Shown here piece after piece: positions 7,083 through 53,816 of a DNA stretch of 64,000 nucleotides. The stretch is from contig JAQTSY010000003.1 in NCBI GenBank assembly GCA_028711065.1, forward strand, positions 1,136 through 65,135. Reading direction: 5' to 3'. Positions within the stretch are counted from its first letter, which is position 1, and the number at the start of each line of letters is the position of its first letter. The notes beneath the pieces are model-generated. The model did not search any database, was not told the origin of the DNA, and saw only the letters and a list, made by a program, of their open reading frames with translations. The stretch is from Minisyncoccota bacterium (GTDB lineage: Bacteria > Patescibacteriota > Minisyncoccia > Phycocordibacterales > JAQTLZ01). The position numbers and the translations under genes were made by a program.

Positions 7083-8225
7083 CTAAAAATAAATCCGTTT
7101 AATCAGAGGATTAATCCGGGTGATTATTTCGTTATGTCCCGTATCCGCATGCTCGGCGAGTTCATAAACATCAACAGTTTCATCTCCATCATATCCTATA
7201 AGCGTTACGACATCGCCGACTTTGACGTCGGGAATATCGGTGCAATCAAGAATGATCATATCCATCGAAACAAGTCCTATGATTTTCGCTCGCTTTCCAT
7301 TCAAAAGCACTTCAGCGTTATTAGACAAGGAACGCGGAAGTCCTTGCCAATATCCGACTGGACAAATTGCAATCTTCGCTCGCGAAGAAAGCTTGTATGT
7401 TCGTTCATAGCCCACAGACTCACCCGCTTCAATTTCTTTTACTTCTGAAATAAGCGTTCTCCAAGAAAGTATGGGGGTAAGATGTATTTTTTCTTCAAAA
7501 GCTTCTCGTAATTTGTGAGATGGCCAAAGTCCAAACAGCCCAGAGGCAACGCGAACCATATCAAAATCCGCTTCTGGGTAGAGAAGGGTACCCGCTGTGG
7601 CGCCCGCATGCGTAATGAGTGAAAAACCCTTACTTTCAAAGCTTTTCTTCCACTCCAAAAACTGGCTGATCTGGCTTTTCGTATATTCAAGCGAAGATGG
7701 ATTTTTCGCCTCTGCAAAATGCGTATACAACCCCTCCACTTTTACGAAATCTTTGTACTTCTCGATTGCTGAAAATAATGTCTCCTTATGTTCAGAAAGA
7801 AAACCTTGCCGATGCATTCCCGTATCGACTTCAATATGTATATTTATTTTTTGCGATGCTATTTCTTTCGGCAGGTTTTCAAAAAATGACAGATCTGAAA
7901 CGGTGAGAGAAATGTTTTTCTCCGATGCTTCATGAACAAGTTCTGGCAAAGTGTAGCCAAGAACTAAAATCGGAAGCGTAATTCCTTCTCTTCGCAAAGC
8001 AAATCCTTCAACGACAGAATCAACGCCGATCCAATCTGCGCCAAGTTTTGAAATCTCTTTTGAAAAATCGACGAGACTATGGCCATAGGCATTCGATTTC
8101 ACAACCGCCATCAACTTGCACGATTTTGGAATGATCTTTCTGAAAATTTCGTAATTATGCGCGATCGCGCGAGTATCCACCTCGATCCACGTTCGAAGCC
8201 CCATTCGTTCATTTTTAGCGATCAT
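7083..8225 (-). CDS. alr: Alanine racemase.
   Basis: AVVKSNAYGHS PLP-lysine motif and the overall family pattern. Confidence 0.9.
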   Translation of the reverse strand: MIAKNERMGLRTWIEVDTRAIAHNYEIFRKIIPKSCKLMAVVKSNAYGHSLVDFSKEISKLGADWIGVDSVVEGFALRREGITLPILVLGYTLPELVHEASEKNISLTVSDLSFFENLPKEIASQKINIHIEVDTGMHRQGFLSEHKETLFSAIEKYKDFVKVEGLYTHFAEAKNPSSLEYTKSQISQFLEWKKSFESKGFSLITHAGATAGTLLYPEADFDMVRVASGLFGLWPSHKLREAFEEKIHLTPILSWRTLISEVKEIEAGESVGYERTYKLSSRAKIAICPVGYWQGLPRSLSNNAEVLLNGKRAKIIGLVSMDMIILDCTDIPDVKVGDVVTLIGYDGDETVDVYELAEHADTGHNEIITRINPLIKRIYF

Positions 8226-8355
8226 AGCCTACAAAGTAGCAAGTTTTTCAGCTCTTCACAACAGGAGTGCCGCGCCTCCATGGGTGTGTAAAACTTTTAA
8301 AATAGAAAATATCTTTCGTTGTATACTATATTCATTAGCAAGTAATCGAGTATTC

Positions 8356-9525
8356 ATGAAAAAGATATTTCTCTTTGCAATAATTTTGAGTCTCTTTAGC
8401 GCAGTTTCTCTTGTGCACGCAGAAAGCACCAGCACTGACTCGATTGCTACAACAACTCCTCTTGCGACCATAACCGCAATTAGAGGGGGAAATAATTACG
8501 ACAGCGCAATTTCGATAGATCCCGGCTCGTATCATCTCGATCATAACCAGAAAAACGGCGACTATGATTATTTTAAGATCTCCGTTACACAAAGTCTTCC
8601 TGTTACAATCACGCTTATTACTTCAGACAAAGCAATCGGATACGATGAAAACACAAAGACATTTATTCCGAGCAAGCAGATAAACGCAGGACTTAAAATT
8701 CAAGATAAAGACAGAACTGACCTTGGCAAAACATACAGCGTTGAAGCTAATGCAAAAAATGTCATTTCTTATACCCCAACGAGCACCGGGTTCATTTATC
8801 TTTTGGTAGGACCGCTCCAAGACTACTATTCAAATGCTTATTATTCGATGGATAAAAGCACGGTCTTTCAGATCGAAGTGGTGGAACCTTCTCCAACAGT
8901 CGAAGCCGTAGTCGCAGTGACTCCAGTAAGCACCGCTGGAAATGGAGATCAAATAAACCCTTCCCCGCTTCCGCAAAATGGAGATTTCTTTTCATTGTTC
9001 AGCACCTCACTCCTCGACAACACTACGTTGCTGTATGTTTTGATAGGAATTGGACTCCTCATACTGCTTCTCCTGCTTATCCTTATTGCAAAAGTGTCGA
9101 GAAAAAAGAAACTTCCACAAACTCCTCCTCAGATGATGCCGCCCATGATGCTACGACCAAACTTCACACCCCCATCATCAATGCCGCCCCCTATGCCAGC
9201 GTCTCTGCAGACTCCTCCCACTCCTCCACGACCCACCTACACTGCGCCAATCGTCACACCTCCTGTGATAACCCGTCCACCCGTGCAGACCATGCCAGTA
9301 GCTCCTACACCGCCTCCCGCACCAAAACCAGCATACGCAGCACCCGTTCCGCCTCCGATTACCGTAATGCCTTCAGTTGCTCCCACCATTCCAAGACCCG
9401 CACCAGTAACACCCGTCATGCCGACCCCGCCAGCTCCAATACCAATGCCGACCCCTCCACCACCTCCGGTACCTCCGCAAATTCCACCTGATATTCCAAA
9501 AACAATGCCTCCAGTGGGACTCTAG
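8356..9525 (+). CDS. Single-pass membrane protein with an N-terminal extracellular domain (PPC-like, GDYDYFKISV) and a ~140-aa proline-rich cytoplasmic tail.
   Basis: Signal peptide MKKIFLFAIILSLFSAVSLVHA, a transmembrane segment LLYVLIGIGLLILLLLLILIA, then PPxP-rich sequence to the C-terminus. Confidence 0.55.
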   Translation: MKKIFLFAIILSLFSAVSLVHAESTSTDSIATTTPLATITAIRGGNNYDSAISIDPGSYHLDHNQKNGDYDYFKISVTQSLPVTITLITSDKAIGYDENTKTFIPSKQINAGLKIQDKDRTDLGKTYSVEANAKNVISYTPTSTGFIYLLVGPLQDYYSNAYYSMDKSTVFQIEVVEPSPTVEAVVAVTPVSTAGNGDQINPSPLPQNGDFFSLFSTSLLDNTTLLYVLIGIGLLILLLLLILIAKVSRKKKLPQTPPQMMPPMMLRPNFTPPSSMPPPMPASLQTPPTPPRPTYTAPIVTPPVITRPPVQTMPVAPTPPPAPKPAYAAPVPPPITVMPSVAPTIPRPAPVTPVMPTPPAPIPMPTPPPPPVPPQIPPDIPKTMPPVGL

Positions 9526-9608: not shown

Positions 9609-9691
9609 GCGCCGGTCGTATAGCGGCTATTACAGGAGACTGTAAATCTCCCGACCTTTGGTCATCGTTGGTTCGAGTCCAACCCGGCGCA
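9609..9691 (+). tRNA. tRNA-Tyr (anticodon GTA) with a long variable arm.
   Basis: Acceptor gcgccgg/ccggcgc, anticodon loop ctGTAaa, T-arm gttgg-ttcgagt-ccaac. Confidence 0.85.
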
Positions 9692-9696
9692 CATGA

Positions 9697-9727: not shown

Positions 9728-9891
9728 ATACATGAGCGAGACGGAGTCATATTTTTTCAGCAGAAAAAAGAGACGAGTCAGGGTCGTGAAAATTATTTCG
9801 TGACGACAAAATAATTATTCCTGACCACAAATAAAAAATCCAAACAGGATACTGAAGCTGTAAGCTTCGAGATTCCAACCCCCAATAGAAC

Positions 9892-12582
9892 CTACTTCAC
9901 CCCCTCACCCTTAGAAACCTGAATATCAGAGACAACGCTTTTCTTTTCGCGACGCCCAACTTTTTTCACTTCAAAAATAAATTCTTTTGCTTTCATTCCA
10001 ACATACACTTCTCCGCCTTTCATAACCCCTCGGGAAATCATAAGGTTCGCAACGGGTGTCATAAGCTTGTCCTGAATAAGCCTCTTCAAAGGCCTTGCAC
10101 CATATTGCGGATTGTAACCTTCTTTCGCCAAGTATTTGAGCACATCTTCTCCGACATCAAGCTTGATCTCCTTTGCAACAAGCCTGTCTTTCACAACTCC
10201 GATCTGAATATCCACGATTTCTTTGATAGCTTCTTCGCTCAAGATATCGAAGACAATAATATCATCGAGACGATTCAAAAATTCTGGTCGGAAATGATCT
10301 TTCAAAGCTCCCTGCACTTTTGATTTAATCTCCTGATAATCGCTCTTTGCGTTTCCAGAACTAAACCCGATCTTCTGCATTTTATCGATGTAATTTGCGC
10401 CGATATTCGAAGTTAATACGATAATCGTATTCTTGAAATTCACCACGCGGCCCTTTGCATCGGTAAGTCTTCCGTTATCAAGCACCTGAAGAAGAATATT
10501 GAACACTTCAGGGTGCGCTTTCTCAATTTCATCGAAAAGGAGTATCGAATACGGTCGGTGTCGAACCATTTCAGTAACACCACCCCCCTCTTCATGTCCT
10601 ACATATCCTGGAGGCGAACCAATGATCTTTGAGACAGAATGTTTCTCCATAAATTCAGACATATCAACGCGAATGAGCGCTTTCTCGTCATCAAACATAA
10701 ATTTCGCAAGCGATTTCGTAAGCTCTGTCTTTCCGACTCCAGTAGGACCGAGGAAAATAAATGAACCGATCGGACGATTCGGATCTGCAACTCCAACACG
10801 AGAACGCTTCACTGCGTCGGAAATCTTTCGCACCGCCTCATCTTGTCCCTTTATTCTAGATTTGAGCTCCTCCTCCATACGAGCGAGCTTGCCGGCTTCT
10901 TCTTCAAGCATTCGGGTCACAGGAATTCCCGTCCATTTCGAAACAATGCCGGCTATATCATTTTCGATAATTTCTTCTTTGAGAATACGGCGTGAACTTT
11001 GCAATTTCTTGAGCCTCTTCACTTTCACCTCAAGTTCTTTTTCAAATTCAGGAATTTTGCCATAACGGATTTCCGCTGCTTTTGAAAGATCAGAATGCGC
11101 TTCTGCACTCTCCCCTTCCATACGAAGGCTCTCAAGTTCTTTCTTAATTGTCTTGATCTCGGAGATAGTTTCTTTCTCGTTTTTCCATTTAAGTTCGATC
11201 TCCGCAGTCTTTTCTTTCAGATCAGCAATTTCTTTTTGAATTTTGGCGACGCGAGATTTTGCGATCTTCGATGTTTCTGCCTCTTTTTTCAGAGCTTCTT
11301 TTTCAATTTCAAGACGCATCACTTTTCGGTGAGTTTCCTCGAGAACTGGGGGCATATCTTCAAGAGAAATTTTGAGCGAAGATGCTGCCTCATCAATAAG
11401 GTCTACCGCTTTATCAGGCAAAAATCTGTCGCTAATATATCGGCTTGAAAGATTTACCGCAGCAATAATTGCGTCATCGGTAATTCGAACGCCGTGGAAA
11501 AGTTCGTATTTTTCTTTGAGTCCCCGAAGAATTGCAATGGCATCTTCAATTGAAGGTTCGCTTACGTGCACCGGCTGAAAGCGTCTTGTAAGTGCGGGAT
11601 CTTTTTCGATATGACGAGAATATTCTTTGAGCGTCGTTGCGCCGATTGCTCGAAGCTCTCCTCGAGCCAGCGCAGGTTTTAGCATATTCGATGCATCCAT
11701 CGAGCCTTCTGCCGCACCGGCACCGACAATAGTATGAATTTCATCAATGAACAGAATAATTCTGCCTTCAGAACGCTCCACTTCTTTAATAATATTTTTG
11801 AGACGCTCTTCGAATTCTCCGCGGTACTTTGTGCCGGCAATGAGAGAACCGAGGTCAAGCGAGACGAGCTCTTTATCTTTCAAAGACTCTGGAACATCTC
11901 CAAGCGCCATTCGACTCGCAAGTCCTTCCGCAATAGCCGTCTTTCCAACTCCGGCTTCACCGATAAGCATCGGGTTATTTTTGGTTCGGCGTGACAGAAT
12001 TTGGATAATACGGGAGATTTCTGCATCACGGCCAATCACAGGATCCAATTTATTTTCCCTCGCAAGTTTTGTCAGGCTCCTTGTATATTTTGAAAGTGAT
12101 TTGAATTTCTTCGGCTGATTGACATCGGTAATTTTTGCGCTTCGAAGTTCTTCGAGCACGCGTAGTACGCCTTCTTTGTCGATTCGAAAACGGGAAAGAA
12201 TTTCTCGAGCGCTTCCCGGAACTTCAAGGATAGCGATGAAGAGGTGTTCTGTAGAAACGAATTCATCTTTAAGTCCTGCTGCAATTTTTGAAGATTTTTC
12301 GATCGCTTCAGCAAGTTCGGGGGTCAAATAGATCTGGTACGACGGAGCAACAACAGCTCCAGATTCCGGGCCTTCGATCGCTTCAATAAGAGAGTCGGAA
12401 AGAAGAAGTGTGTCTACTTCAAGTTTGTCGAGAATAGACGCGACCATACTCTCTTCCTGGAGGAGAAGAGCGGTGAGAAGATGGAGAGGATTTACGTGGT
12501 TTTGACCGCGCTCAATAGCAAGCTCGTGAGCTCTCCTGATCGCCTCCTTTGCTTTGGTTGTGAAATGATTGAATGGGGGCAT
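9892..12582 (-). CDS. clpB: AAA+ disaggregase chaperone ClpB.
   Basis: 896 aa. Clp-N domain, two Walker A/B nucleotide-binding domains ([16 protein letters not shown]) and a middle coiled coil. Confidence 0.9.
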
Positions 12583-16722: not shown

Positions 16723-16794
16723 GGCCACGTAGCCAAGTGGTAAGGCAGAGATCTGCAAAATCTCTATGCGGCGGTTCAATTCCGCCCGTGGCCT
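16723..16794 (+). tRNA. tRNA-Cys (anticodon GCA).
   Basis: Acceptor ggccacg/cgtggcc, anticodon loop ctGCAaa. Confidence 0.85.
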
Positions 16795-16936
16795 CCGGAC
16801 ACGAACTCGCGCCTGCGCGCGAGTGTGGCGGAATTGAAAGGGTTTTCGATGTTTTCGAAAAGCTTTGCTTTAAGAAAACCGAAAACCACCTGGCGACGTG
16901 GTCGCCAATTCCCAGCCTCGTGGCCCTTGTATAATT

Positions 16937-17217: not shown

Positions 17218-17290
17218 GCACCCATAGCTCAGCTGGTAGAGCAGATCCCTCTTAAGGATAAGGTCGAAGGTTCGATCCCTTCTGGGTGCA
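17218..17290 (+). tRNA. tRNA-Lys (anticodon CTT).
   Basis: Acceptor gcaccca/tgggtgc, anticodon loop ctCTTaa, T-arm gaagg-ttcgatc-ccttc. Confidence 0.8.
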
Positions 17291-17344
17291 CAGAAAATTT
17301 TGAAGAAATTTTCAGGCACCCAAGCAAAGCGCGGGGCGCTTTGC

Positions 17345-17445
17345 GGGAAGGGATCGAAGCCCCGATGAGCAGATTTTTAAGTTCGTAATCGAACGTAAAA
17401 AATCTCCATCGGGGATACTGGTCGTGTAACGACCGATACCCCAGG
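17345..17445 (+). ncRNA. Structured RNA-like element A (three-way junction): long hairpin ccccgatg...catcgggg, hairpin ggtcg-UGUAA-cgacc, and an outer stem. Unknown family.
   Basis: Stems identified by hand. It is paralogous to element B (17614..17716), and the two show compensatory stem changes. Confidence 0.35.
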
Positions 17446-17461
17446 TGCCTCAATAAACAAT

Positions 17462-17543
17462 GCCGGGGTGGCGAAATTGGCAGACGCACTTGCCTTAGGA
17501 GCAAGCGGAGTAATCCATGGAGGTTCAAGTCCTCTCCCCGGCA
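17462..17543 (+). tRNA. tRNA-Leu (anticodon TAG), class II.
   Basis: Acceptor gccgggg/ccccggc, loop ctTAGga, long variable arm. Confidence 0.85.
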
Positions 17544-17550
17544 CAAAATG

Positions 17551-17579
17551 AAAAAACCAGCTTGTGCTGGTTTTTTCAT
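17551..17579 (+). terminator. Intrinsic terminator aaaaaaccagc-ttgt-gctggtttttt ending the tRNA array.
   Basis: Hairpin plus T-tract. Confidence 0.65.
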
Positions 17580-17613
17580 TTTGGCACAGGAGTAAGTGCC
17601 AAAGGGCACTTAC

Positions 17614-17716
17614 GGGAGAGGACTTGAAGCCCGATTGAGCATTTTTTCTAGCTTTACTAAGCGAAGAAAAAATCCAATCGGGGTACTGCTCCTGTAAGGA
17701 GAAAGATTCTCTCCCC
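17614..17716 (+). ncRNA. Structured RNA-like element B: outer stem gggagag/ctctccc, hairpin cccgattg...caatcggg, hairpin ctcc-UGUA-aggag. Paralogue of element A.
   Basis: Shares the core GAAGCCCCGAUGAGCA...AUCGGGGUACUG with A, and stems differ by compensatory pairs (agattttt/aaaaatct versus attttttct/agaaaaaat). Confidence 0.35.
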
Positions 17717-17893
17717 CGGCTTCAACAAAATCGAAAAGTACCGGGCGTAGCCGACAAGTCCTCAATTTATTTATCATTGACTTTCCCCATCAAATATGGT
17801 AATGTCCGGCCAGGGATTGTTCCCTGACATTGTTTTAGTAAGCTTTCCTTCGAACTTCACATTGGCCACAGAGCCAGAAAGACGAGGTGTAAG

Positions 17894-21483: not shown

Positions 21484-22650
21484 TTATTTTAATTGATTAA
21501 TAGTATTGGTAATAATACTGGAAAGCACTGTTGCCCCGAGAAGCACTCCCGCCCCAATCACAGTCCAGAGAAATGCTCTTTTGGCAGTCTCAAGTTCCTC
21601 GCTATTGCCTTGAGCTTTCACGAAGAGAAACCCGGTATATATGATGGCAAGTACAACAAGTATTCCTCCAAGCTGTTCAACTACCTTCAGAACTTTGGTA
21701 AAAAATGTATAAAGGTCGCACGTGCTACCGAGAGGATTCGGGAGTCCCCCGCCACCATTACAACTGCCCCCGCCACCTTTAGGAGTCAGATCAATACCAT
21801 CCCCAGCCTTGGGAAACAGATCAGCGCCGGGATCCGCGGGTGGGTTTGGATTGGTGGCAGGTGTCGGAGATGTTTGGCTACAATCCTTAGCTTGCAACTC
21901 TGACATTTTGGACTGAACAAGGTTGCGGGAATCTTGAAGTTGCGCGACTTCTACAAGAGCGATTTCATTAGCCTTATTTATATTATCTGGGTCGCTCGTA
22001 TCTGCTGCAAGAGCTTTTGCTTGTGCTGTTTTTGCGCTAATTTGAGAATCGATCGCCGAAAGAGCGTTTTGAATTTGCTGAATACTGTAAGCTTTATTTT
22101 CTTCGCAGGAACTACCCGCCCCCGTGCCAGCGCCAGCAGGAATTTGATCCAATATTGAAAGGGGTAAATCGATACCAGTATCGCCGTAACTACCCGAAAC
22201 ACCCCCGATTCCTAAATTAAACAAAGACCCTGATGGAAAATCTGCTGAAGGTGTCTTCGAAGTATACGGAAGAAGCTTTCTATTTATTGTAGTGATATCG
22301 GTAGCGGTGCATTGACGACACAGGCCTCCAGATACTCCTGAATTATTGATATAGCCCGTACATGCAGCATTTGATGGGAAAGCATTCACCGCTTTTTTAT
22401 CTTTACCCACAGCACACCACACAGTACACGTACCGCAAATATTCCAGGAGGATTGTCTGCCTTGGGTACAAGCCGGACCCGAAGAAAAAACATGGACTAC
22501 ATTATTGGAATCTTTTGAACACCATGTCGCTGCGGAGGCGGAAGAAGGAACAGCTCCCAAGATCAAAAGCAAGGCTACGACAGAGAGAAAACCGAAAACA
22601 AAAAATGATGTATGCGCGTAGGCGTCTTTTCCTTTTTTAATAATAGACAT
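21484..22650 (-). CDS. Pilin-like protein, paralogue 4. Large Cys/Gly-rich extracellular N-terminal region fused to a C-terminal VirB2-like pilin module.
   Basis: C-terminus IYTGFLFVKAQGNSEELETAKRAFLWTVIGAGVLL matches the paralogue motif. N-terminal signal or transmembrane segment. Confidence 0.55.
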   Translation of the reverse strand: MSIIKKGKDAYAHTSFFVFGFLSVVALLLILGAVPSSASAATWCSKDSNNVVHVFSSGPACTQGRQSSWNICGTCTVWCAVGKDKKAVNAFPSNAACTGYINNSGVSGGLCRQCTATDITTINRKLLPYTSKTPSADFPSGSLFNLGIGGVSGSYGDTGIDLPLSILDQIPAGAGTGAGSSCEENKAYSIQQIQNALSAIDSQISAKTAQAKALAADTSDPDNINKANEIALVEVAQLQDSRNLVQSKMSELQAKDCSQTSPTPATNPNPPADPGADLFPKAGDGIDLTPKGGGGSCNGGGGLPNPLGSTCDLYTFFTKVLKVVEQLGGILVVLAIIYTGFLFVKAQGNSEELETAKRAFLWTVIGAGVLLGATVLSSIITNTINQLK

Positions 22651-35045: not shown

Positions 35046-36293
35046 TTAAGGAAGTTGTGGAATCGGCAGATTGAGAGCCGGACAAACATAATTATTTATG
35101 AAGCGTTGTGTCGTCTTATAGACATAACCAGTTGGAGTGTGCGCTGTCGGCAAGCCAAATGGTACCCATGGTGCTAGAACTTGCTCCCAATTCATAACCT
35201 GGAGTCTGTTTACGGCGTCTCTCGTCATCGGACCATAAAAACCATTTACCGGAAGACTCATTTTAAGATAACTATTGAGCAACGTCTGAAGTCTTTTTAC
35301 ATCTTCTGGATCATTTTTCCATCCATAATGAATATATGTTTTCAGATAGACACTGCAAGCTTCGGCTCCAAGTACTTCACCCTGGGTAGGACCGGTAGAT
35401 GCACCGAGCACTTCCCCGTTTCCCCCTCCTATTCCTCCATTTCCTCCACCTGCTCGTCCTCCACCTGAAGACCCTGAATTATGATGAGGAGTTGGCGTTG
35501 GCTCACTGGCGCCGTTCGGAGTCGGAGTTGGAGAAGGAGTCACCTTAGGAGTAGGAGTCGGTGTTGGTTCTGGCGTAGGAGTGAGAGTTGGTTCTGGAAT
35601 TGGCGTCGGCGAAAGAGTTGGCGACGGCGTAACGGTCGGAGTTGGAGTCGCCGTTGGAGTGGGTGTAAGAGTTGGTGTCGGTGAAGGAGTTACGGAAGGA
35701 GTCGGGGTTACGCTTGGTGTTGGTGTCACTGTCGGGGTTGGAGTGGCTGTCGGTGTTGGGGTTGGAGTAGCTGTGGGAGACGGAGTCGGTGTAGATGTTG
35801 GCGTCGGAGTTATTGAAGGAGTTGGGGTTGGTGTGGTCGTGGGTGTCGGAGACGGAGTAGGCGAAGAGGAGGGGGTGGGTGTGGGAGTTCCAGTTGGAGT
35901 CGGGGTCGGAGAAGGAGTTGCAACTGGAGTGGGAGTTGAAGTGGGCGAGGGGGTTGTGGACGGAGTTGGGGTTACGCTTGGTGTGGGTGTTACCGTTGGA
36001 GTAGGGGTTACACCCGGAGTTGGTGTTGGCGTTATGTCGGGTGTTGGCGAAGGAGTGGGCACGGGGGTCGGAGTTGCGGTCGGGCACTCACCAATACTAT
36101 CGCCATGATCGAGATGGGTTTGTAACGAACTTTCTCCGACCTGTATCGTTTGCGGATTTTCGGAATTACCAGGCGGATAATGACAGATTGTTATTTGGTT
36201 CTCACTCGGCTCTGCCTTCGTCGTATATGCAAAAACCCCAGCTGATGCTACGATGATTCCTATCAAAAAAAGGCCCAATAATTTATTTTTCAT
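35046..36293 (-). CDS. Secreted protein: N-terminal Cys-containing domain, long Pro/Thr/Ser linker, Gly-rich segment, and a C-terminal peptidoglycan-binding (PG_binding_1-like) domain.
   Basis: Signal peptide. About 200 aa of (T/S)PTP repeats. [16 protein letters not shown] motif. Confidence 0.5.
35500..36060. repeat. Coding low-complexity tandem repeat (PT/PS-rich linker) inside the 35046..36293 gene.
   Basis: Repetitive ggagttgg / ggtgtcgg units visible in the DNA. The antisense ORF 35581..36108 is an artefact of this repeat. Confidence 0.6.
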
Positions 36294-39263: not shown

Positions 39264-39439
39264 AAGAAAAACGACGAGAAAGCAAGAAACCGCTCTTGGG
39301 CGGTTTTTTGCTATACACATTGACTTTTTGGCGGAATTTTGTTTAAATAGATAGGTTAACAAACGCCCCCAGCGGGCTTTTTTTAGTAGAAAGCGGCCTA
39401 AAACTTTTTAATCTGAGGAAAGTGAGAGGTGAACATTGG

Positions 39440-39525
39440 GACGGGACCCAATGTGCAAGACCTTGAGTGTTCTGTACTCAGAATGCGAAAGGTGTACCGC
39501 TCCTGTAAGGAGAGGAGAAGGAAAA
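39440..39525 (+). ncRNA. Element C: a degenerate third copy of the A/B structured repeat family in the typA leader (shares GGGACGGGACCCAATGTGCA and GUACCGCUCC-UGUA-AGGAGA).
   Basis: About 20-nt identity with B over the UGUA hairpin, plus similarity to A's 5' core. Confidence 0.25.
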
Positions 39526-39556: not shown

Positions 39557-41326
<1,770 letters not shown>

Positions 41327-48950: not shown

Positions 48951-49112
48951 GCTCGAAATAGTTTTTGGAAACCCAGAAAACTGCCCCAGCGGGCAGTTTT
49001 CTTTGTGCTGGGCGCCGGCTGCTTTGTGGTATAGTTTTTGCCCGAAGCAAAAATTACACCACAAAGACCCTGCCAGCCTAGCGTGCGCGGGTTTCCAAAA
49101 ACTATTTCGAGC
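48951..49112. repeat. 162-bp palindromic element. A perfect 24-bp inverted repeat (gctcgaaatagtttttggaaaccc / gggtttccaaaaactatttcgagc) encloses two internal hairpins. Fills the convergent gap between the dsbA-like gene and the helicase.
   Basis: Inverted repeat verified base by base. Internal hairpins gaaaactgccc-cagc-gggcagttttc and ctttgtggt...accacaaag. The motif ATAGTTTTTG occurs three times. Confidence 0.5.
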
Positions 49113-49122
49113 TTGCGTGGTA

Positions 49123-50877
49123 CTAGAGAGTTTCTTTCTTCATCGGACACCATTCGCAATCTTTGTCGTCGCACGTATCTGTCAGAAATTTTCCGGACCA
49201 GACACTTTCGATGAGTGATTGGATTTCGTCTTTGACTCGTTTTTCATCTGCCGAGGTGATCGGGAGTGTTATCGTTGGACACCTACCCTTTGAGTCGGGT
49301 TTTATAAAAACAAGAGCCGGCTCTATACTTTTATTTTTATATTTTGTATTCCCCCCGAGCAAAATTTTGTAGAAAATGAGTTGGCGGAAATATCCCCCGT
49401 CGTCGCTTTTTGTTTCTCCTTTTATAGCATTCACACTCATTCCTTCCTTCGTTTTATAGTCATATACGAGCGTCTTATCCTGCCCATCCACTACGACGTC
49501 CAATTTGCCATGGAGCTTCAAAATGACCTCATTTCCGCCATATTTGCCCTCGTATGAGGCCTCTACCCACGTCTCGGTCAATACCTTACCTTCTGAATTA
49601 AGCAGCGAAATAAGGGCTTTTGCCACTTTAGGAGCATCTGCGAGAAGTGTCTCAACAGCGCCCTCTTTTTCAAACATCGGAAGAAGTGAGCGGTCAAAAT
49701 AGGCCTTCACGGTACTCTCAATCGTCGCCACAATACCCTCTTCGCTCTTATTGTCTTGGTGCCACACATACGAAAGCGCTTCATGCATAGCGTTTCCTTT
49801 TTCCGATGCCACACTTGGCGCTTCCGGCACTTTCAAAATACTTTTATATAAAAATTGGCTCGGGCAAGTCAGAAAATGATTGAGTGCGGTCACCGAAAGC
49901 CCCGATTCGGTCAAAACATTTTTTGCATACTCAATAATCTCCATTTTCTGCTTTTCTTCCCCCCCACTAGCAAGAACGGTTCTTGCTAGTGGGTTTCCAA
50001 ACAGAGCCGGTAGATCGGTCTGCGAAATAGATTTGGCGTCGAGCTCGGAAATAAATCGAAGCGGAGTAAATTCTTTTTTCAAAGCGTCTTGGAGCGGAGC
50101 AATTATCGAAGCGTGTTTTTTCGCCCGTGTGAGTGCTACATAGAAAAGTCGGCGGGCATCTCGCACTTCGTCTTCATCTCCTTTTTCTCGGGGCAAGATA
50201 AACGAGCTTCCGTGTCCGCGGGAGAGCCACGCTTCGTCTGTGGCATACGGCAAAAAGACATAATCAAACTCGAGCCCTTTGGAGCCGTGAGCCGTCATCA
50301 CCCGCACCTGCGAATCCGGCCGGCCCACTGTTATCTTTACGCTTTTCGTCTCCGCTGATTGCCGGTATGCCAGAAGTTCTTCGATTAAAACGCTCGGTGA
50401 TTGAATACTTTTTTCTTCCGCAATATCACTCGCGAGTGCAACAATCGTTCGCCAGACTTCCGCAGAAAGAGGATTTCTTTCCGCGAGCGTTTCAAATCCA
50501 GAAAGTTTCGCCGCGAGAACTAGGAAGTTTATCGCTCCGTCTTTGGTTATTTCTTTTTGGAGCTTCGCAATGGCGGGAATTTCGCTCCGCGAAATTCCCG
50601 CAAAGTCCCCTGCTCGTATCAAACGAATAAGTGCAGTCTTGCGAGCAAAATCAAGATTCCACAACCCCCCAGCAACAGTCCGAGCCAGTGCCTCCACATT
50701 CCCCGGATTCGCCAGGTATTCAATCAAATCAAAATAGAGCGCCCCGACAGGATGCGAAAAAATATCCGCTCCGCGTTCCGCCGAAGCCGGTATTCCATTT
50801 TGCTCGAGCAAAGCAAGTACCCGCTCCACATCCCGATTCCGTCGGACAATTATTGCGATAGTTGGTTTCTCTTTCAC
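49123..50877 (-). CDS. UvrD/PcrA-like helicase C-terminal half (motifs IV-VI) fused to a PD-(D/E)XK / Cas4-AddB-like nuclease with a Cys cluster. Fragment of a split gene, GTG start.
   Basis: VMTAHGSKGLEFDYVFLP (motif V/VI), C-terminal CEWCPMK. Begins exactly where the N-terminal fragment ends. Confidence 0.7.
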   Translation of the reverse strand: MKEKPTIAIIVRRNRDVERVLALLEQNGIPASAERGADIFSHPVGALYFDLIEYLANPGNVEALARTVAGGLWNLDFARKTALIRLIRAGDFAGISRSEIPAIAKLQKEITKDGAINFLVLAAKLSGFETLAERNPLSAEVWRTIVALASDIAEEKSIQSPSVLIEELLAYRQSAETKSVKITVGRPDSQVRVMTAHGSKGLEFDYVFLPYATDEAWLSRGHGSSFILPREKGDEDEVRDARRLFYVALTRAKKHASIIAPLQDALKKEFTPLRFISELDAKSISQTDLPALFGNPLARTVLASGGEEKQKMEIIEYAKNVLTESGLSVTALNHFLTCPSQFLYKSILKVPEAPSVASEKGNAMHEALSYVWHQDNKSEEGIVATIESTVKAYFDRSLLPMFEKEGAVETLLADAPKVAKALISLLNSEGKVLTETWVEASYEGKYGGNEVILKLHGKLDVVVDGQDKTLVYDYKTKEGMSVNAIKGETKSDDGGYFRQLIFYKILLGGNTKYKNKSIEPALVFIKPDSKGRCPTITLPITSADEKRVKDEIQSLIESVWSGKFLTDTCDDKDCEWCPMKKETL

Positions 50878-50881
50878 ACCT

Positions 50882-51772
50882 TCATTCTAGCAAATTTCCA
50901 CACAAGGAAACCAATCGTTCAAAATAAGTTTTAGCTAGTTCTTTTTTATCTTCCGGCAGTTTATCAATAGCTGCAGAAAGTTTTTCTTTGTCAAAATAAA
51001 TACTTGGATAAAATTCGTGATTTCTTTTAAGCCACGCGGGATTGAGTTCAAGATATTTGACAACTCCGTCTTTCAAAGAAAAATTCTGTCCGGCAGAATC
51101 TATGTTTAATCCACTTGCCTTTGCCAGACTTACAAACGTTTTCACCTCTGGTTTTTTTGATATTTCTTCTTGTAACAATCTTTCACTCTCGTCCCCCTCG
51201 GCAGTAAGCTCCTCTTGAAAATACTTCTTGTGTAAAGTTTGGAGCTTATCATGCGTTTCATCTGTTGAGACCCTGTCTGCTTTTAAGTAACCAGTGCGGT
51301 CATGCCAAGTTGCAAATGGATCATCTCCCCTTTCATTTGCGGCTAGATGTATTTCTGGAATATTTTCAGGGAATAAAAGGTGTGCAATTTTGTTGAGATA
51401 AAAAGCACTCTTTATTTGTTCATTTGTAAGCGGCATCTTGAATTCAGCATGAATTCTTTTCTCAGGATTTTCTGAATCAGCATATACTTTTTTGAAGTAT
51501 CCTTCGCCAATTGGTTCGCCGTGTTCCATAATAAGAAAAGTATACACCAACATAATCACTTGTTCACCCCCCTCCCCCAACCTGCTATAATCAGGATATA
51601 TGGGAAACTCGAGCGGAAAAAACATTGCCGGTGGTGTGGTGCATAGCATGCCGGCGGATTTGCGAAAGGCCATTGCCTCTGACAAAGCGGCACTTTCACT
51701 CTGGCAGGATATTACGCCGCTTGTGAGAAGTGGGTGAGTTGATGGGTAGGGACCCATCGACGCAAGACTCAT
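50882..51772 (-). CDS. Hypothetical protein inside the helicase insertion. Glycine-rich loop IGEGYFKKVY (kinase-like?). The start is probably an internal Met.
   Basis: ORF only. AT-rich like the host. Stop codon 4 nt before the helicase C-fragment start. Confidence 0.35.
   Translation of the reverse strand: MSLASMGPYPSTHPLLTSGVISCQSESAALSEAMAFRKSAGMLCTTPPAMFFPLEFPIYPDYSRLGEGGEQVIMLVYTFLIMEHGEPIGEGYFKKVYADSENPEKRIHAEFKMPLTNEQIKSAFYLNKIAHLLFPENIPEIHLAANERGDDPFATWHDRTGYLKADRVSTDETHDKLQTLHKKYFQEELTAEGDESERLLQEEISKKPEVKTFVSLAKASGLNIDSAGQNFSLKDGVVKYLELNPAWLKRNHEFYPSIYFDKEKLSAAIDKLPEDKKELAKTYFERLVSLCGNLLE
51733..51769. repeat. Hairpin-repeat copy 1 (ggtgagttGATGGGTagggACCCATCgacgcaagac). It is the inverted partner of 53781..53816, and a partial direct copy lies at 51814..51830.
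   Basis: 36 of 38 nt match the reverse complement of copy 2. Confidence 0.45.
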
Positions 51773-52152
51773 TGAGGGCTTTTATGAGCGAAGCAAAATA
51801 AAAGACCCAATGAGTGGATAGTGTCTGTAAGACAGGGACCCACTTCGCAAGGCCGGAGCCTGACGAGGCGAGGCAGGGCTGAAAGATTTTTCAGCAGAAA
51901 AATACTTTTGGCCGCAATGAGTGGATTTGCTGGGTCATCTCCGGCAAAAAGACGGAGACGCGAGACATCCGCAGGAAGAATGCCCTCTCAAAAATGAGAG
52001 GCGGAATGCGCCGCCCGTGTTGTTGGGTGGGCTGTACTCATCGGACGGATAAATCAATGAGTCGTTCCCAAAAATTCGTAGTTGGTAGAGGCAAATAAAA
52101 AACTGGGACAACGTTCGCACGTCATCCCAGAATGTTCTCCGTCAGAATAAAT

Positions 52153-52506
52153 TCACCCAGTAGTCTCTGAGTGGAAGCAATAGATGTGCCTCCCAGAATC
52201 AATCCGCCGCCTTTCAGCCTGCCATTCTTCGAAACGTGCCTTGTCGAGGCTAGCTCTTATCGCGAACAGGCACCGGAGCCGTGATTCTAACTCGGCCCGC
52301 ACAATGTCATCGGGGCGACGTACGAACTCGCCACGTGTATCCCCGGGTTGTGGGTCGTAGACCTTATCTTCAGGAAGAAGAGGCATTTTCACCGCACCCG
52401 CATCCGCCTCCGCCATCAACGCTGCAATCTCCTCTTTCGAGAGGTTTCTCTGGAATCTTTGAGGCATTGTCTTGCTCCTTTCTAAAATGACCTCGTCAGA
52501 CCACAC
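52153..52506 (-). CDS. Small GC-rich hypothetical protein (about 104 aa from the ATG with an AAAGGAG ribosome-binding site) inside the helicase insertion.
   Basis: ORF with a good Shine-Dalgarno sequence. GC about 58%. Confidence 0.35.
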   Translation of the reverse strand: MWSDEVILERSKTMPQRFQRNLSKEEIAALMAEADAGAVKMPLLPEDKVYDPQPGDTRGEFVRRPDDIVRAELESRLRCLFAIRASLDKARFEEWQAERRRIDSGRHIYCFHSETTG

Positions 52507-52513
52507 ACTAGCT

Positions 52514-53734
52514 CTAATTTTTCAAAATGTCTACTATTTCCTCCACCAAATACTTGTCGGCGGCTTCAGTATTCCCCGCCATGACCACCTCAACAGGCTT
52601 CGGCTTGTCTCCGTTTTCGGCAGAGAGTTTGATACGCAAATTTTTATGCTCCCCTTCGGCATAGTTATTCTCAATCATCGCAAAACTGGCGTCTAAAATG
52701 CTCTGATGCGAGCGGTAGTTGCCGGTGAGCGAAATGACCTTCATCCCCTTCCAGAGATTTTGAAAACGCAAAAAGTTCTCGACGGACGCGCCCTGGAAAC
52801 GGAAAATAGCCTGCTTCTCATCCCCCACCACGAAGAGATTGGGATTGTCGAAAAAGTCGGCGATAGCACGAATGAGCATATTTTGCGAATCATTGGTGTC
52901 CTGATGCTCGTCAACGAGAATGTAGAGAAATTTCTCCTGGAGCATTTGCAGAAGAAGCTTGTCGGTGCGCAGTGCTGTGAGAAGCTCGATGATGAGGTCG
53001 TCAAAATCCATTTTTCGGTCGGCGCGTTTCTTTTCTTCGTAGGCGAGATAGGCATCGGCAAAGATAATCGTGCGCTCGCATTTTTCAATTCGCTTCAATG
53101 CATCGCCTTTGAGCTGCCCTTTTGTCGGCCCGCGAGTGGAGAGAGATGCTTCATCCTGCTTCACCCGCTCGATTTCTTCAGTGGCAAAAGTCCGCACGAT
53201 TTCCGGCGTCCAAGCTTCTTTTTTGGAATCGCGGATTGCGCCGAGAATTTTGCCAACATAGAAATCCGGCTCGCCGGCAGGGCGGAGCTTCCCAAATTTC
53301 TTATCGCGCAAAATGGTGCGGACGAGGGTTTCCGATTCAATATCAGTGATTTGTTTGGTGCGGGAGAGATGCGGAAAATGATCCGGGAATTCGGCAATTA
53401 CAGAGCCAGCAAAGCCGTGATAGGTATGTACTCGCACCTCCTCTGCGCGCGCTCCGATGAGCGCGCGCAGTCTCCGCTTCATCTCTTTGGCCCCAGCTTC
53501 AGTGAAAGTCAAACACAAAATCCCGCTCGCAGGCGTGTCAGTCTTAAGCAAAATATTCCCAATCCGCAAAGCCAAAATCTGAGTCTTCCCCGTCCCCGGC
53601 CCCGCAATGACCATAACCGGGCCATCGATCGAGTCGACCGCGAGTTTCTGTTGTTTATTTAATTTTTTGTACTCTGCTTCGAATGTCGTCATTTTATTAT
53701 CAATGGTATCCACTTCCTTACAGGAACTGTACAC
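52514..53734 (-). CDS. UvrD/PcrA-like helicase N-terminal half (motifs I-III), fragment.
   Basis: AGPGTGKTQ (Walker A), DEHQDTN (motif II). Confidence 0.7.
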   Translation of the reverse strand: MYSSCKEVDTIDNKMTTFEAEYKKLNKQQKLAVDSIDGPVMVIAGPGTGKTQILALRIGNILLKTDTPASGILCLTFTEAGAKEMKRRLRALIGARAEEVRVHTYHGFAGSVIAEFPDHFPHLSRTKQITDIESETLVRTILRDKKFGKLRPAGEPDFYVGKILGAIRDSKKEAWTPEIVRTFATEEIERVKQDEASLSTRGPTKGQLKGDALKRIEKCERTIIFADAYLAYEEKKRADRKMDFDDLIIELLTALRTDKLLLQMLQEKFLYILVDEHQDTNDSQNMLIRAIADFFDNPNLFVVGDEKQAIFRFQGASVENFLRFQNLWKGMKVISLTGNYRSHQSILDASFAMIENNYAEGEHKNLRIKLSAENGDKPKPVEVVMAGNTEAADKYLVEEIVDILKN

Positions 53735-53780
53735 CTTTTGGACATTTTCTTTGTGATTACACTCGAAACTGTCTCAAAAG

Positions 53781-53816
53781 GTCTTGCGCCGATGGGTCCC
53801 TACCCATCAGCTCACC
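53781..53816. repeat. Hairpin-repeat copy 2 (inverted orientation), immediately upstream of the helicase N-fragment start.
   Basis: Reverse-complement match to 51733..51769. Confidence 0.45.

Follow-up and report, generated by a model that had tools for sequence, protein, structure and literature searches.

A Patescibacteria-wide family of structured RNAs with units that copy the 3' end of the tRNA gene before them

In a contig of a Minisyncoccota bacterium (Patescibacteria), two similar elements, A and B, stand on either side of a gene for a leucine transfer RNA (tRNA), tRNA-Leu(TAG). The question raised by this locus is what kind of RNA, if any, they encode. The window, meaning the whole stretch of DNA analysed, comprises 64,000 nucleotides (nt) of GenBank assembly GCA_028711065.1 (contig JAQTSY010000003.1, positions 1,136 to 65,135, forward strand). 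Judged by homologues of TypA and IF-2, its source belongs to the class Paceibacteria of the Patescibacteria. A sequence-only reading had placed A at 17345..17445 and B at 17614..17716, had taken both for paralogous structured RNAs, and had seen a third copy in the leader of typA. A and B are genuine, strongly structured RNAs. They belong to a Patescibacteria-wide family without a counterpart in Rfam 15.

A three-way junction in two permuted topologies

The core of the family is a three-way junction made of a closing helix, a long hairpin (P2) and a short hairpin (P3) with a U-GUA-A cap. Along the core the order is closing helix, junction strand YG(C)AAG, P2, junction strand RUACNG (alternatively ACCUG), and P3. 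Only about 12 junction and loop nucleotides are conserved; the stems all covary. The copies in the window fall into two topologies (Table 1), T-type (A, B, G and E) and C-type (C, D and F). In T-type units the closing helix, P1, consists of a downstream copy of the 3' end of the cognate tRNA and an upstream complement of that copy. The C-type is a circular permutation of the T-type junction, in which a loop-capped local hairpin, P0, stands in place of P1; the chain is open between P3 and P0, and its 5' end reads GUGAG. The permutation was read from a MAFFT alignment of 74 copies and from covariance-model alignments, in which GCAAG of the C-type corresponds to (G)AAG of the T-type and GUACAG corresponds to RUACUG. 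Copies C, D and F have in common GUGAG-(UGGG-NN-GGGACCCA, hairpin P0)-GCAAGAC-(P2)-GUG(U/G)ACAG-(P3, loop UGUAA). The conserved 5' boundary of C-type copies lies exactly at GUGAG, with arbitrary sequence upstream. Their settings are behind tRNAs, within tRNA pseudo-copies, in mRNA leaders, or inside other copies.

The sequence blocks reported as common to A and B were confirmed, and the outer stem with two hairpins proposed for each is supported by z scores of about -4.5 against dinucleotide shuffles for the 121-nt stretches holding A and B. The blocks described as single-stranded cores had to be reassigned: CCCCGAU (17360-17366) pairs with AUCGGGG (17408-17414) to form the base of P2, and the conserved strands of A and B that are truly unpaired are AAG and (A/G)UACUG. 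The units are also larger than the ~100 nt first estimated, extending over 17315-17449 (A) and 17592-17722 (B). Complete T-type units fold as predicted, with z scores of -5 to -7 (A, -67.2 kcal/mol and z -6.9; B, z -6.1).

The window contains at least seven copies, one of them nested; A, B and C had been recognised before, and G, E, D and F had been missed. The list combines a reading of the sites that match a loose pattern, GTACYG-N4-TGTAA with 1 mismatch allowed (7 matches against 0.85 expected), with a later covariance-model search of the window. Copy C in the typA leader is real (75.6 bits), but it is circularly permuted and not just more diverged, and its P3 ends 45 nt before the typA ATG at 39557 rather than ~30 nt. 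Copy D lies ~20 nt before a start codon.

Selection on the RNA fold was examined on 74 distinct C-type copies aligned with MAFFT, under a structure drawn by hand. Paired cells amounted to 84.9% compared with 69.7% in shuffles, cells with double changes to 346 compared with 121, and the covariation score was 0.446 compared with 0.166, a value reached by 0/500 shuffles. Sliding the structure by 1-3 columns gave scores of at most 0.19. Columns fixed by the search pattern are uninformative, while the P0 extension, P2 and P3 were free to vary, and each of the three covaries. In the well-aligned helices (P0 extension and P3) G.U and A.C pairs stand at 38:0, and selection therefore acts on the RNA of a given strand and not on a DNA palindrome. 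Significant covariation together with strand-specific G.U pairing, the generic mark of a structured RNA under selection, is thus present, and the claim that A and B are paralogous RNAs selected for their structure holds. The stems of A and B differ by the compensatory changes originally read from them (agattttt/aaaaatct versus attttttct/agaaaaaat; ggtcg/cgacc versus ctcc/ggag). A covariance model built from the 74 C-type sequences, with A and B left out, aligns both end to end with P0 collapsed (E-values of 1e-8 for B and 1.3e-8 for A).

The window was compared with Rfam 15 (4227 models, including twister, pistol, hatchet, HDV-like ribozymes, T-box, riboswitches, RNase P, tmRNA, the signal recognition particle (SRP) RNA and 6S). 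At gathering thresholds 6 tRNAs were found in the window and nothing else, and A, B and C match no family, as the first reading had supposed. L-numbers below are labels of loci fetched from other genomes and metagenomes. An Rfam scan of 17 such loci gave tRNAs, 2 group I introns and 1 LOOT RNA (L095 6008-6133) and nothing else, and scans at permissive E-values over A/B, C, L017 and L002 gave nothing relevant. Hammerhead, twister, pistol, hatchet, HDV-like, T-box, SRP and RNase P RNAs were rejected, with no support from Rfam and mismatched core strands. The hammerhead, already dismissed by motif, gives no Rfam match even at E <= 10; its CUGANGA, GAAA and UH differ from the junction strands AAG/GCAAG and RUACNG, and the CCGAUGAG pointed out in the first reading sits inside helix P2. 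ARAGORN and the Rfam tRNA model RF00005 call the six true tRNAs only, and the units keep just the acceptor- and T-stem-like helices. The group I intron model RF00028 matches no copy. No copy interrupts a functional tRNA or an open reading frame (ORF); all are intergenic or in pseudo-copies.

A genome scan with the exact C-type pattern, using one genome per species, identified at least 115 loci, nearly all in Patescibacteria and often several per genome. Matches outside the Patescibacteria (L013, L015, L023, L063, L081, L090, L092 and L117) lack P2 and P3 and were discarded as chance. A second, independent scan of metagenome contigs with a B-like pattern, GAAGCCCGRTTGAG-N25-55-GGRTACTG, identified at least 120 loci, of which fewer than 10 are chance matches by a rough estimate. 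The covariance model gave about 139 matches in ~790 kb of fetched loci, clusters and tandems included. No copy was found in 60 kb of the relatives L001-L003 using an nhmmer profile and the covariance model. Viral contigs (IMG/VR) gave 0 matches, on which ground a phage-borne element was rejected. A literature search by sequence strings and keywords found no description of the family.

Two further readings of the fold were dropped. P3 resembles the anticodon arm of tRNA-Tyr (CU-GUA-AG), but its loop is a U-GUA-A / GUAA cap found behind all kinds of tRNAs. A pseudoknot between GGGA of the P0 loop and UCC before the P2 3' strand is unsupported; both vary, and P0 may lack GGGA (L076, L016). At the apex of P2 many C-type copies carry a recurrent UGAG-N4-6-CGAA(A) on an A/U-rich stem (columns 46-72 of the 74-copy alignment), which could form tandem sheared G.A pairs. 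In Paceibacteria (L017 1384-1500, L027, L031, L101, L102 and L076 1000-1800) the C-type core is surrounded by a larger conserved RNA of ~300 nt with the layout ..AGCCGCAGCGAUG - U/A hairpin - CGAGGCGG-GUGAG..core..P3-GAGNACUUAG - hairpin - CUUAGUNACUCGUGACC. A hairpin, GAAAGCAAACUGCUUUGCUUUC, often precedes this RNA, and in L076 the RNA is tandemly repeated behind the EF-G gene.

Coupling to the upstream tRNA and turnover of the copies

The sequence-only reading had treated the elements as free-standing. Each T-type unit is instead enclosed by sequence copied from the neighbouring tRNA's 3' end. In A, B and G the 3' strand of P1, directly after P3, copies the upstream tRNA from position ~56 in the T-loop. 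The segment copied is nt ~56-76, that is, the last 5 nt of the T-loop followed by the 3' strands of the T-stem and the acceptor stem, and it sometimes extends into trailer and terminator. The 3' part of B, CUCUCCCCCGGC plus CAACAAAAUCGAAAAG, repeats the tRNA end CUCUCCCCGGCA together with its trailer. In the same three units the 5' strand of P1 immediately precedes AAG and complements the tail copy over its first 10 nt, which gives a P1 of 10 base pairs (bp). Farther upstream come H2, a small GC hairpin, and sequence able to pair with the copied acceptor 3' strand. The whole T-type unit folds like a cloverleaf in which P2 and P3 replace the T-loop, a 'shadow' of the same-strand tRNA ~30-110 nt upstream. 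Complement arms of up to 27 nt form perfect palindromes across the tRNA end.

A reading of the 5' strands of A and B as antisense to the T-arm was corrected. The T-arm comes close to a palindrome, and what the strand complements is the downstream tail copy; its sequence equals that of the T-stem 5' strand joined to the complement of the final 5 T-loop nt. A primer-binding site of the retroviral type is disfavoured, since the antisense arm complements the trailer and not an added CCA.

The coupling extends to the metagenome units. Upstream sequence of at least 320 nt was available for 95 of them, and 73/95 have a tRNA within 300 nt upstream, at distances of 28-288 nt and mostly 28-109 nt. Unit and tRNA are co-oriented in 73/73 cases, and 34 tRNA species are followed by units. 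In 46/73 units at least 12 of the 14 nt that follow P3 agree with the tRNA tail, and in 28/73 all 14 do. P1 has at least 7/10 pairs in 100/113 metagenome units. The tail copy runs through the encoded CCA in L127 and through trailer and terminator for at least 46 nt in L132. In the genome-derived loci 23/69 tRNAs have a direct downstream copy of their tail, compared with 1 upstream copy and 5 in the control with tails of other tRNAs. Of 111 C-type copies, 20 have a co-oriented tRNA no more than 400 nt upstream (~2 expected). Copies of this type also sit inside tRNA pseudo-copies, after the D arm (L032, L094, L026), after the anticodon arm (L009, L036) or in the T-loop (L084, L100, L016). Two of these loci also hold group I introns recognised by Rfam in tRNA-Asn at 35/36 (L094 971-1217 and L026 7531-7784), directly downstream of a unit made of a copy of tRNA-Asn nt 1-23, a C-type copy and a hairpin.

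Comparison of close relatives revealed rapid change. L119, syntenic with the window and 94% identical in IF-2, has tRNA-Cys and tRNA-Leu(TAA) 4 nt apart; unit G is missing and its site is cleanly empty. Behind tRNA-Leu(TAA) it carries a ~195-nt unit with no counterpart in the window. In the spacer between tRNA-Lys and tRNA-Leu(TAG) a different variant takes the place of A, and B is conserved (L119 8860-8950). Relatives of the E variant occur in the same locus at 8035-8228 and 8492-8700. Relatives with TypA proteins of 90% and 78% identity lack copy C, and the typA leaders of L001 and L003 have the same promoter and terminator-like hairpin and no element C. Copies are nested, as F is in the P0 loop of another copy and as a C-type is within P2 of a T-type in L043. 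They also form arrays, with identical modules joined to tails of different tRNAs (L165) and tandem duplication (L180). Within one genome, 90-95% similarity extends over about 260 nt of the copies, and their flanks are unrelated; aligned with those flanks the copies have sharp boundaries and neither terminal inverted repeats nor short target duplications. The sole duplication at the copies is the tRNA tail, 20 to more than 46 nt long. With gains, losses, replacements, nesting and arrays of copies seen between close relatives, the family has the behaviour of a repeat that duplicates and recombines. Its origin as fragments of a known mobile repeat had been named as the outcome that would overturn the first reading. 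The copies are indeed dispersed repeats that come and go between genomes at 90-94% protein identity, but they are not a known repeat and their structure is conserved phylum-wide.

The typA leader has features of its own. At 39321-39386 of the window a sigma-70-like promoter (TTGACT..TTTAAAT) immediately precedes a terminator-like hairpin that has a U7 run (GCCCCCAGCGGGCUUUUUUU), an arrangement that may be a typA attenuator. The arrangement is kept in L001 (9915-9985) and L003 (9760-9785), both without element C. In L002 the site of element C holds a different structured insert of ~110 nt (9868-9990; z -3.4), CAAG-GCGU-GAGCGAGG..ACGUAC-UUACUG-GUACGU..ACGC enclosed by GGAAAUU/AAUUUCC, with no Rfam match at E <= 5.

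Table 1. Copies of the family in the window, their parts, and the tRNA genes beside the T-type units. Scores in bits are those of the covariance model.
Feature	Position	Strand	Sequence or setting
Unit A, T-type	17315..17449	+	behind tRNA-Lys(CTT); 39.2 bits, E 1.3e-8
A acceptor-like stem	17315-17321 / 17444-17449	+	GGCACCC / GGUGCC
A hairpin H2	17324-17344	+	
A P1	17347-17356 / 17434-17442	+	GAAGGGAUCG / CGAUACCCC
A J1/2	17357-17359	+	AAG
A P2	17360-17366 / 17408-17414	+	CCCCGAU / AUCGGGG, apical extension
A J2/3	17415-17420	+	AUACUG
A P3	17421-17424 / 17430-17433	+	GUCG / CGAC, loop UGUAA
Unit B, T-type	17592..17722	+	behind tRNA-Leu(TAG) and its terminator; 39.6 bits, E 1e-8
B hairpin H2	17592-17613	+	
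B P1	17614-17626 / 17702-17715	+	GGGAGAGGACUUG / AAAGAUUCUCUCCC
B junction strands	17627-17629; 17683-17688	+	AAG; GUACUG
B P2	17630-17636 / 17676-17682	+	CCCGAUU / AAUCGGG
B P3	17689-17692 / 17698-17701	+	CUCC / GGAG
Unit G, T-type	16797..16930	+	behind tRNA-Cys; 14.7 bits, fold z -5.1
G acceptor-like strand		+	GGACACG
G hairpin H2	16806-16823	+	
G acceptor-3' copy	16919-16925	+	CGUGGCC
G P1	16827-16836 / 16906-16917	+	GGCGGAAUUG / CAAUUCC(CA)GCC; 5' strand followed by AAAG
G P2	16841-16848 / 16880-16887	+	
G junction strand	16888-16892	+	ACCUG
G P3	16893-16905	+	GCGAC-GUG-GUCGC
Unit E, elaborated T-type variant	9740..9884	+	behind tRNA-Tyr; 12.9 bits
E sequence		+	..AAAAAAUCCAAACAGG-AUACUG-GAAGC-UGUAA-GCUUC-GAGAUUCCAACCCCC; 3' end copies tRNA-Tyr GAGUCCAACCC
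Copy C, C-type	39429..39512	+	typA leader; 75.6 bits
C sequence		+	GUGAAC-P0(UUGGG-ACGGGA-CCCAA)-UGUGCAAG-P2-GUGUACCG-P3(CUCC-UGUAA-GGAG); enclosed by GGUGAA / UUCACC
Copy D, C-type	53711..53815	-	directly upstream of the N-terminal half of a UvrD-like helicase gene; 76 bits
Copy F, C-type	51734-51837	+	lies inside the P0 loop of a disrupted outer C-type copy; 79.3 bits
Outer copy around F	51725..51860	+	GUGAG-AAG-UGGG / F / GGGA-CCCA-CUUC-GCAAG
tRNA-Cys(GCA)	16723..16796	+	template of unit G stems
tRNA-Lys(CTT)	17218..17291	+	template of unit A stems (T-stem GAAGG, T-loop CGAUC)
tRNA-Leu(TAG)	17462..17544	+	template of unit B stems; terminator hairpin 17546-17577 next
tRNA-Tyr(GTA)	9609..9692	+	followed by a terminator hairpin, then unit E

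A tRNA-scaffolded RNA and its rivals

The best explanation, in which we have moderate confidence, is that the T-type and C-type copies form a Patescibacteria family of tRNA-scaffolded RNAs matured by tRNA enzymes. Units would be transcribed with or behind a tRNA, then excised and end-matured by RNase P, RNase Z and the CCA-adding enzyme. The product would be a stable tRNA-scaffolded RNA with the junction 'head' as its active part, and the units would spread by duplication of the tRNA 3' end (S-unit-S) and recombination between modules. As the stems copy the acceptor/T minihelix, tRNA-processing enzymes probably cut out and mature the units, although our confidence in this step is lower than in the explanation as a whole. 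Units A and G lie within the tRNA operon and are presumably transcribed as part of it, because no terminator separates them from the tRNAs. Their location fits the suggestion, made in the first reading, of tRNA-array spacers that are processed.

Several points weigh against this explanation. B and many other units stand behind an intrinsic terminator with no recognisable promoter, a position that sits uneasily with selection at the RNA level. P1 has 10 bp, twice the 5 bp of a T-stem, and the distance from elbow to acceptor end is unlike that of a true tRNA, so that recognition of the units by RNase P and RNase Z is only putative. The C-type copies in mRNA leaders have no acceptor-like stem, and the scaffold idea leaves them unexplained. 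The complement upstream of P1 fits the gene or the precursor, trailer included, and not the CCA-bearing mature tRNA; with the perfect palindromes, this could reflect a duplication mechanism at the DNA level. No protein partner, transposase or integrase was identified in the window or the inspected loci. Finally, the search patterns fixed some columns, so ascertainment contributes to how conserved the P0 core and GCAAGAC look.

It is possible, though we think it unlikely, that the three-way junction represents a small ribozyme of a new class, able to cleave (or ligate) itself. Its cleavage site would be on the junction's open side: in the C-type 5' of GUGAG, in the T-type between P3 and the copied tRNA tail. 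Cleavage would separate tRNAs or mRNAs from flanking RNA. Two circularly permuted topologies of one core are familiar from hammerhead types I-III and twister P1/P3/P5. The few conserved nucleotides amid covarying stems, the sporadic multi-copy occurrence in unrelated gene neighbourhoods, and the sharp 5' boundary at GUGAG after arbitrary sequence are also as expected of a ribozyme. Against this, no Rfam ribozyme family is matched in sequence or structure even at E <= 10, T-type units have no conserved candidate nucleotide at the proposed cleavage site, and variants of the P3 loop and junction (a GUG loop, ACCUG) are tolerated.

We give similarly little credence to the idea that the copies are sites or scars at the DNA level, either remnants of integrative elements recombined in the T-loop (attL/attR) or palindromes like repetitive extragenic palindromes (REP) or miniature inverted-repeat transposable elements (or MITEs), with RNA structure incidental. 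The T-loop is the classical crossover site of integrases, and each unit lies between direct repeats of the tRNA 3' end, which in some cases include trailer and terminator. Perfect palindromes across the tRNA end, presence/absence polymorphism with clean empty sites, and recombination of modules between tRNA loci also speak for it. The direct repeats bound a segment without an ORF. Against the idea, this segment measures only 100-200 nt, and neither an integrase nor a transposase gene neighbours the units in the window or the inspected loci. The ORFs scanned near the elements have no transposase domain. The G.U to A.C ratio points to selection on one transcribed strand, and the junction sequence and fold are conserved phylum-wide. 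Terminal inverted repeats and short target duplications, the marks of a repeat derived from a MITE or an insertion sequence, are missing from same-genome copies, and viral contigs hold no match.

Slightly less probable again is that the junction is a new catalytic or RNA-guided module acting on tRNA 3' ends. The 10-25-nt antisense arm would pair with nt 56-76 of the cognate tRNA or its precursor, and the junction would cleave, ligate or exchange the 3' part of the tRNA at the T-loop. This might serve repair or replacement of tRNA 3' ends, or the element's own tRNA-templated duplication. If true, each tRNA gene in Patescibacteria would be linked to a hitherto unknown system that is ribozyme-based or RNA-guided.

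A cis-regulatory leader, that is, a riboswitch or protein-binding site controlling a downstream gene such as typA, appears improbable. It is suggested by the closeness of C and D to start codons and by the recurrence of C-type copies upstream of orthologs in divergent genomes (ksgA x2, msrA x2, GT4 glycosyltransferase x2, alaS and fmt). Most copies, however, are outside leaders, among them T-type units behind tRNAs with no downstream ORF, and the typA copy is missing in the close relatives. Orientation relative to neighbouring ORFs is ~50:50 by a crude ORF call, copies are nested and tandem, no expression platform (terminator or helix sequestering the Shine-Dalgarno sequence) lies at a fixed distance, and the genes have no common theme.

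Decaying, functionless tandem duplicates of tRNAs with coincidental hairpins would account for stems copied from the neighbouring tRNA and for some degenerate units (E; L040), but this idea was rejected, as the same non-tRNA junction and strands recur behind 34 tRNA species and far from tRNAs, covariation is far above controls, and no unit is called as a tRNA by ARAGORN or the Rfam tRNA model.

Known systems and other features of the window

None of the known systems compared here shares the defining combination of this family. It is new to Rfam 15 and to the searched literature, and akin to known tRNA-like and dispersed structured RNAs.

tRNA-like handles for processing or stability include the t-elements of plant mitochondria, mascRNA from MALAT1, the tRNA-like domain of tmRNA and the bacterial YrlA Y RNAs, and Ponchon and Dardel reportedly engineered a 'tRNA scaffold'. 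The family resembles them in that an acceptor-like stem stacks on a T-stem-like helix, the element sits in a tRNA transcription unit or beside one, and the tRNA frame bears a foreign RNA domain. It differs in that the frame copies the 3' end of the cognate neighbour itself, in the three-way junction on a 10-bp helix that replaces the T-loop, and in having no D or anticodon arm. There are also dozens of units per genome, behind many tRNAs, and their processing is putative.

Permuted small ribozymes (hammerhead I-III, twister P1/P3/P5) likewise have a three-helix junction with few conserved nucleotides, covarying stems, permutation and sporadic multi-copy occurrence, but YG(C)AAG plus RUACNG replaces CUGANGA, GAAA and UH, and Rfam gives no match. 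Like dispersed repeats (REP and bacterial interspersed mosaic elements, pneumococcal BOX and RUP, Neisseria Correia elements, MITEs), the copies are short, intergenic, non-coding and presumably co-transcribed, with stable folds, strain-variable, and nested or clustered. Those repeats are near-identical within a species, whereas this family is conserved in fold with covariation phylum-wide, has no terminal inverted repeats or short target duplications, and is coupled specifically to tRNA 3' ends.

Williams, in 2002, reportedly described a T-loop class of tRNA-gene integration sites. At such sites of islands and phages, as in the units, an intact tRNA is followed downstream by a second copy of its 3' segment that begins in the T-loop, but the 'island' here is ~100-200 nt long, has no integrase and always includes the complement of the repeat and the conserved junction. 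Group I introns occur in tRNA genes of Patescibacteria (Nakagawa et al. 2026, PMC13011429), and that paper makes no mention of the present elements. The introns are structured RNAs tied to tRNA genes in the same phylum, and in L094 and L026 one stands beside a C-type copy. The elements differ from them in having 85-135 nt, no RF00028 match and a place outside the functional tRNA.

The family has hundreds of instances, strong covariation and two permuted topologies, and its unit copies the 3' end of the tRNA gene before it. Patescibacteria (the candidate phyla radiation, CPR) form a large share of bacterial diversity and have ultra-small cells and tiny genomes; to our knowledge, almost nothing has been reported on their non-coding RNAs. 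If the units are processed tRNA-scaffolded RNAs, they would be nature's equivalent of the engineered tRNA scaffold and would hint at a ribonucleoprotein not yet known. If catalytic, they would be a new ribozyme class, and a junction that proved catalytic or RNA-guided would be categorically new. If selfish, they would exemplify a novel strategy by which non-coding elements in streamlined genomes exploit tRNA genes as safe havens. The family accounts for local rearrangements and tRNA fragments in Patescibacteria genomes, and knowledge of it would improve their annotation.

Other features were noted in the window. A UvrD/AddA-like helicase-nuclease gene on the minus strand (49123-53734) is split into an N-terminal half (52514-53692) and a C-terminal half (49123-50877). 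The ~1.6-kb insert between the halves has ORFs at 50882-51772 and 52153-52506 (GC-rich) without Pfam matches, and carries the nested C-type copies on the opposite strand. In L002 (16013-21296) the gene is split at a similar place with other cargo (N6_N4 methyltransferase, DUF6996/6997); in L001 (16248-19157) it is intact and encodes 969 amino acids. Just downstream of the C-terminal-half gene lies a perfect 24-nt inverted repeat, GCTCGAAATAGTTTTTGGAAACCC, at 48951-48974 / 49089-49112, with arms 114 nt apart.

The tRNA-Tyr gene (9609-9692) is convergent with the neighbouring clpB in the window, co-oriented with it in L120 (69-152) and L121 (11-94), and missing there in L119, and the tRNA neighbourhood is thus rearranged between close relatives. 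At 35515-36050, inside an ORF on the minus strand (35046-36293), a long imperfect tandem repeat with 6/12/18-nt periodicity and 21 overlapping GGTGTTGG-like copies forms a repetitive, low-complexity coding region; related short repeats occur at 21841 and 2589.

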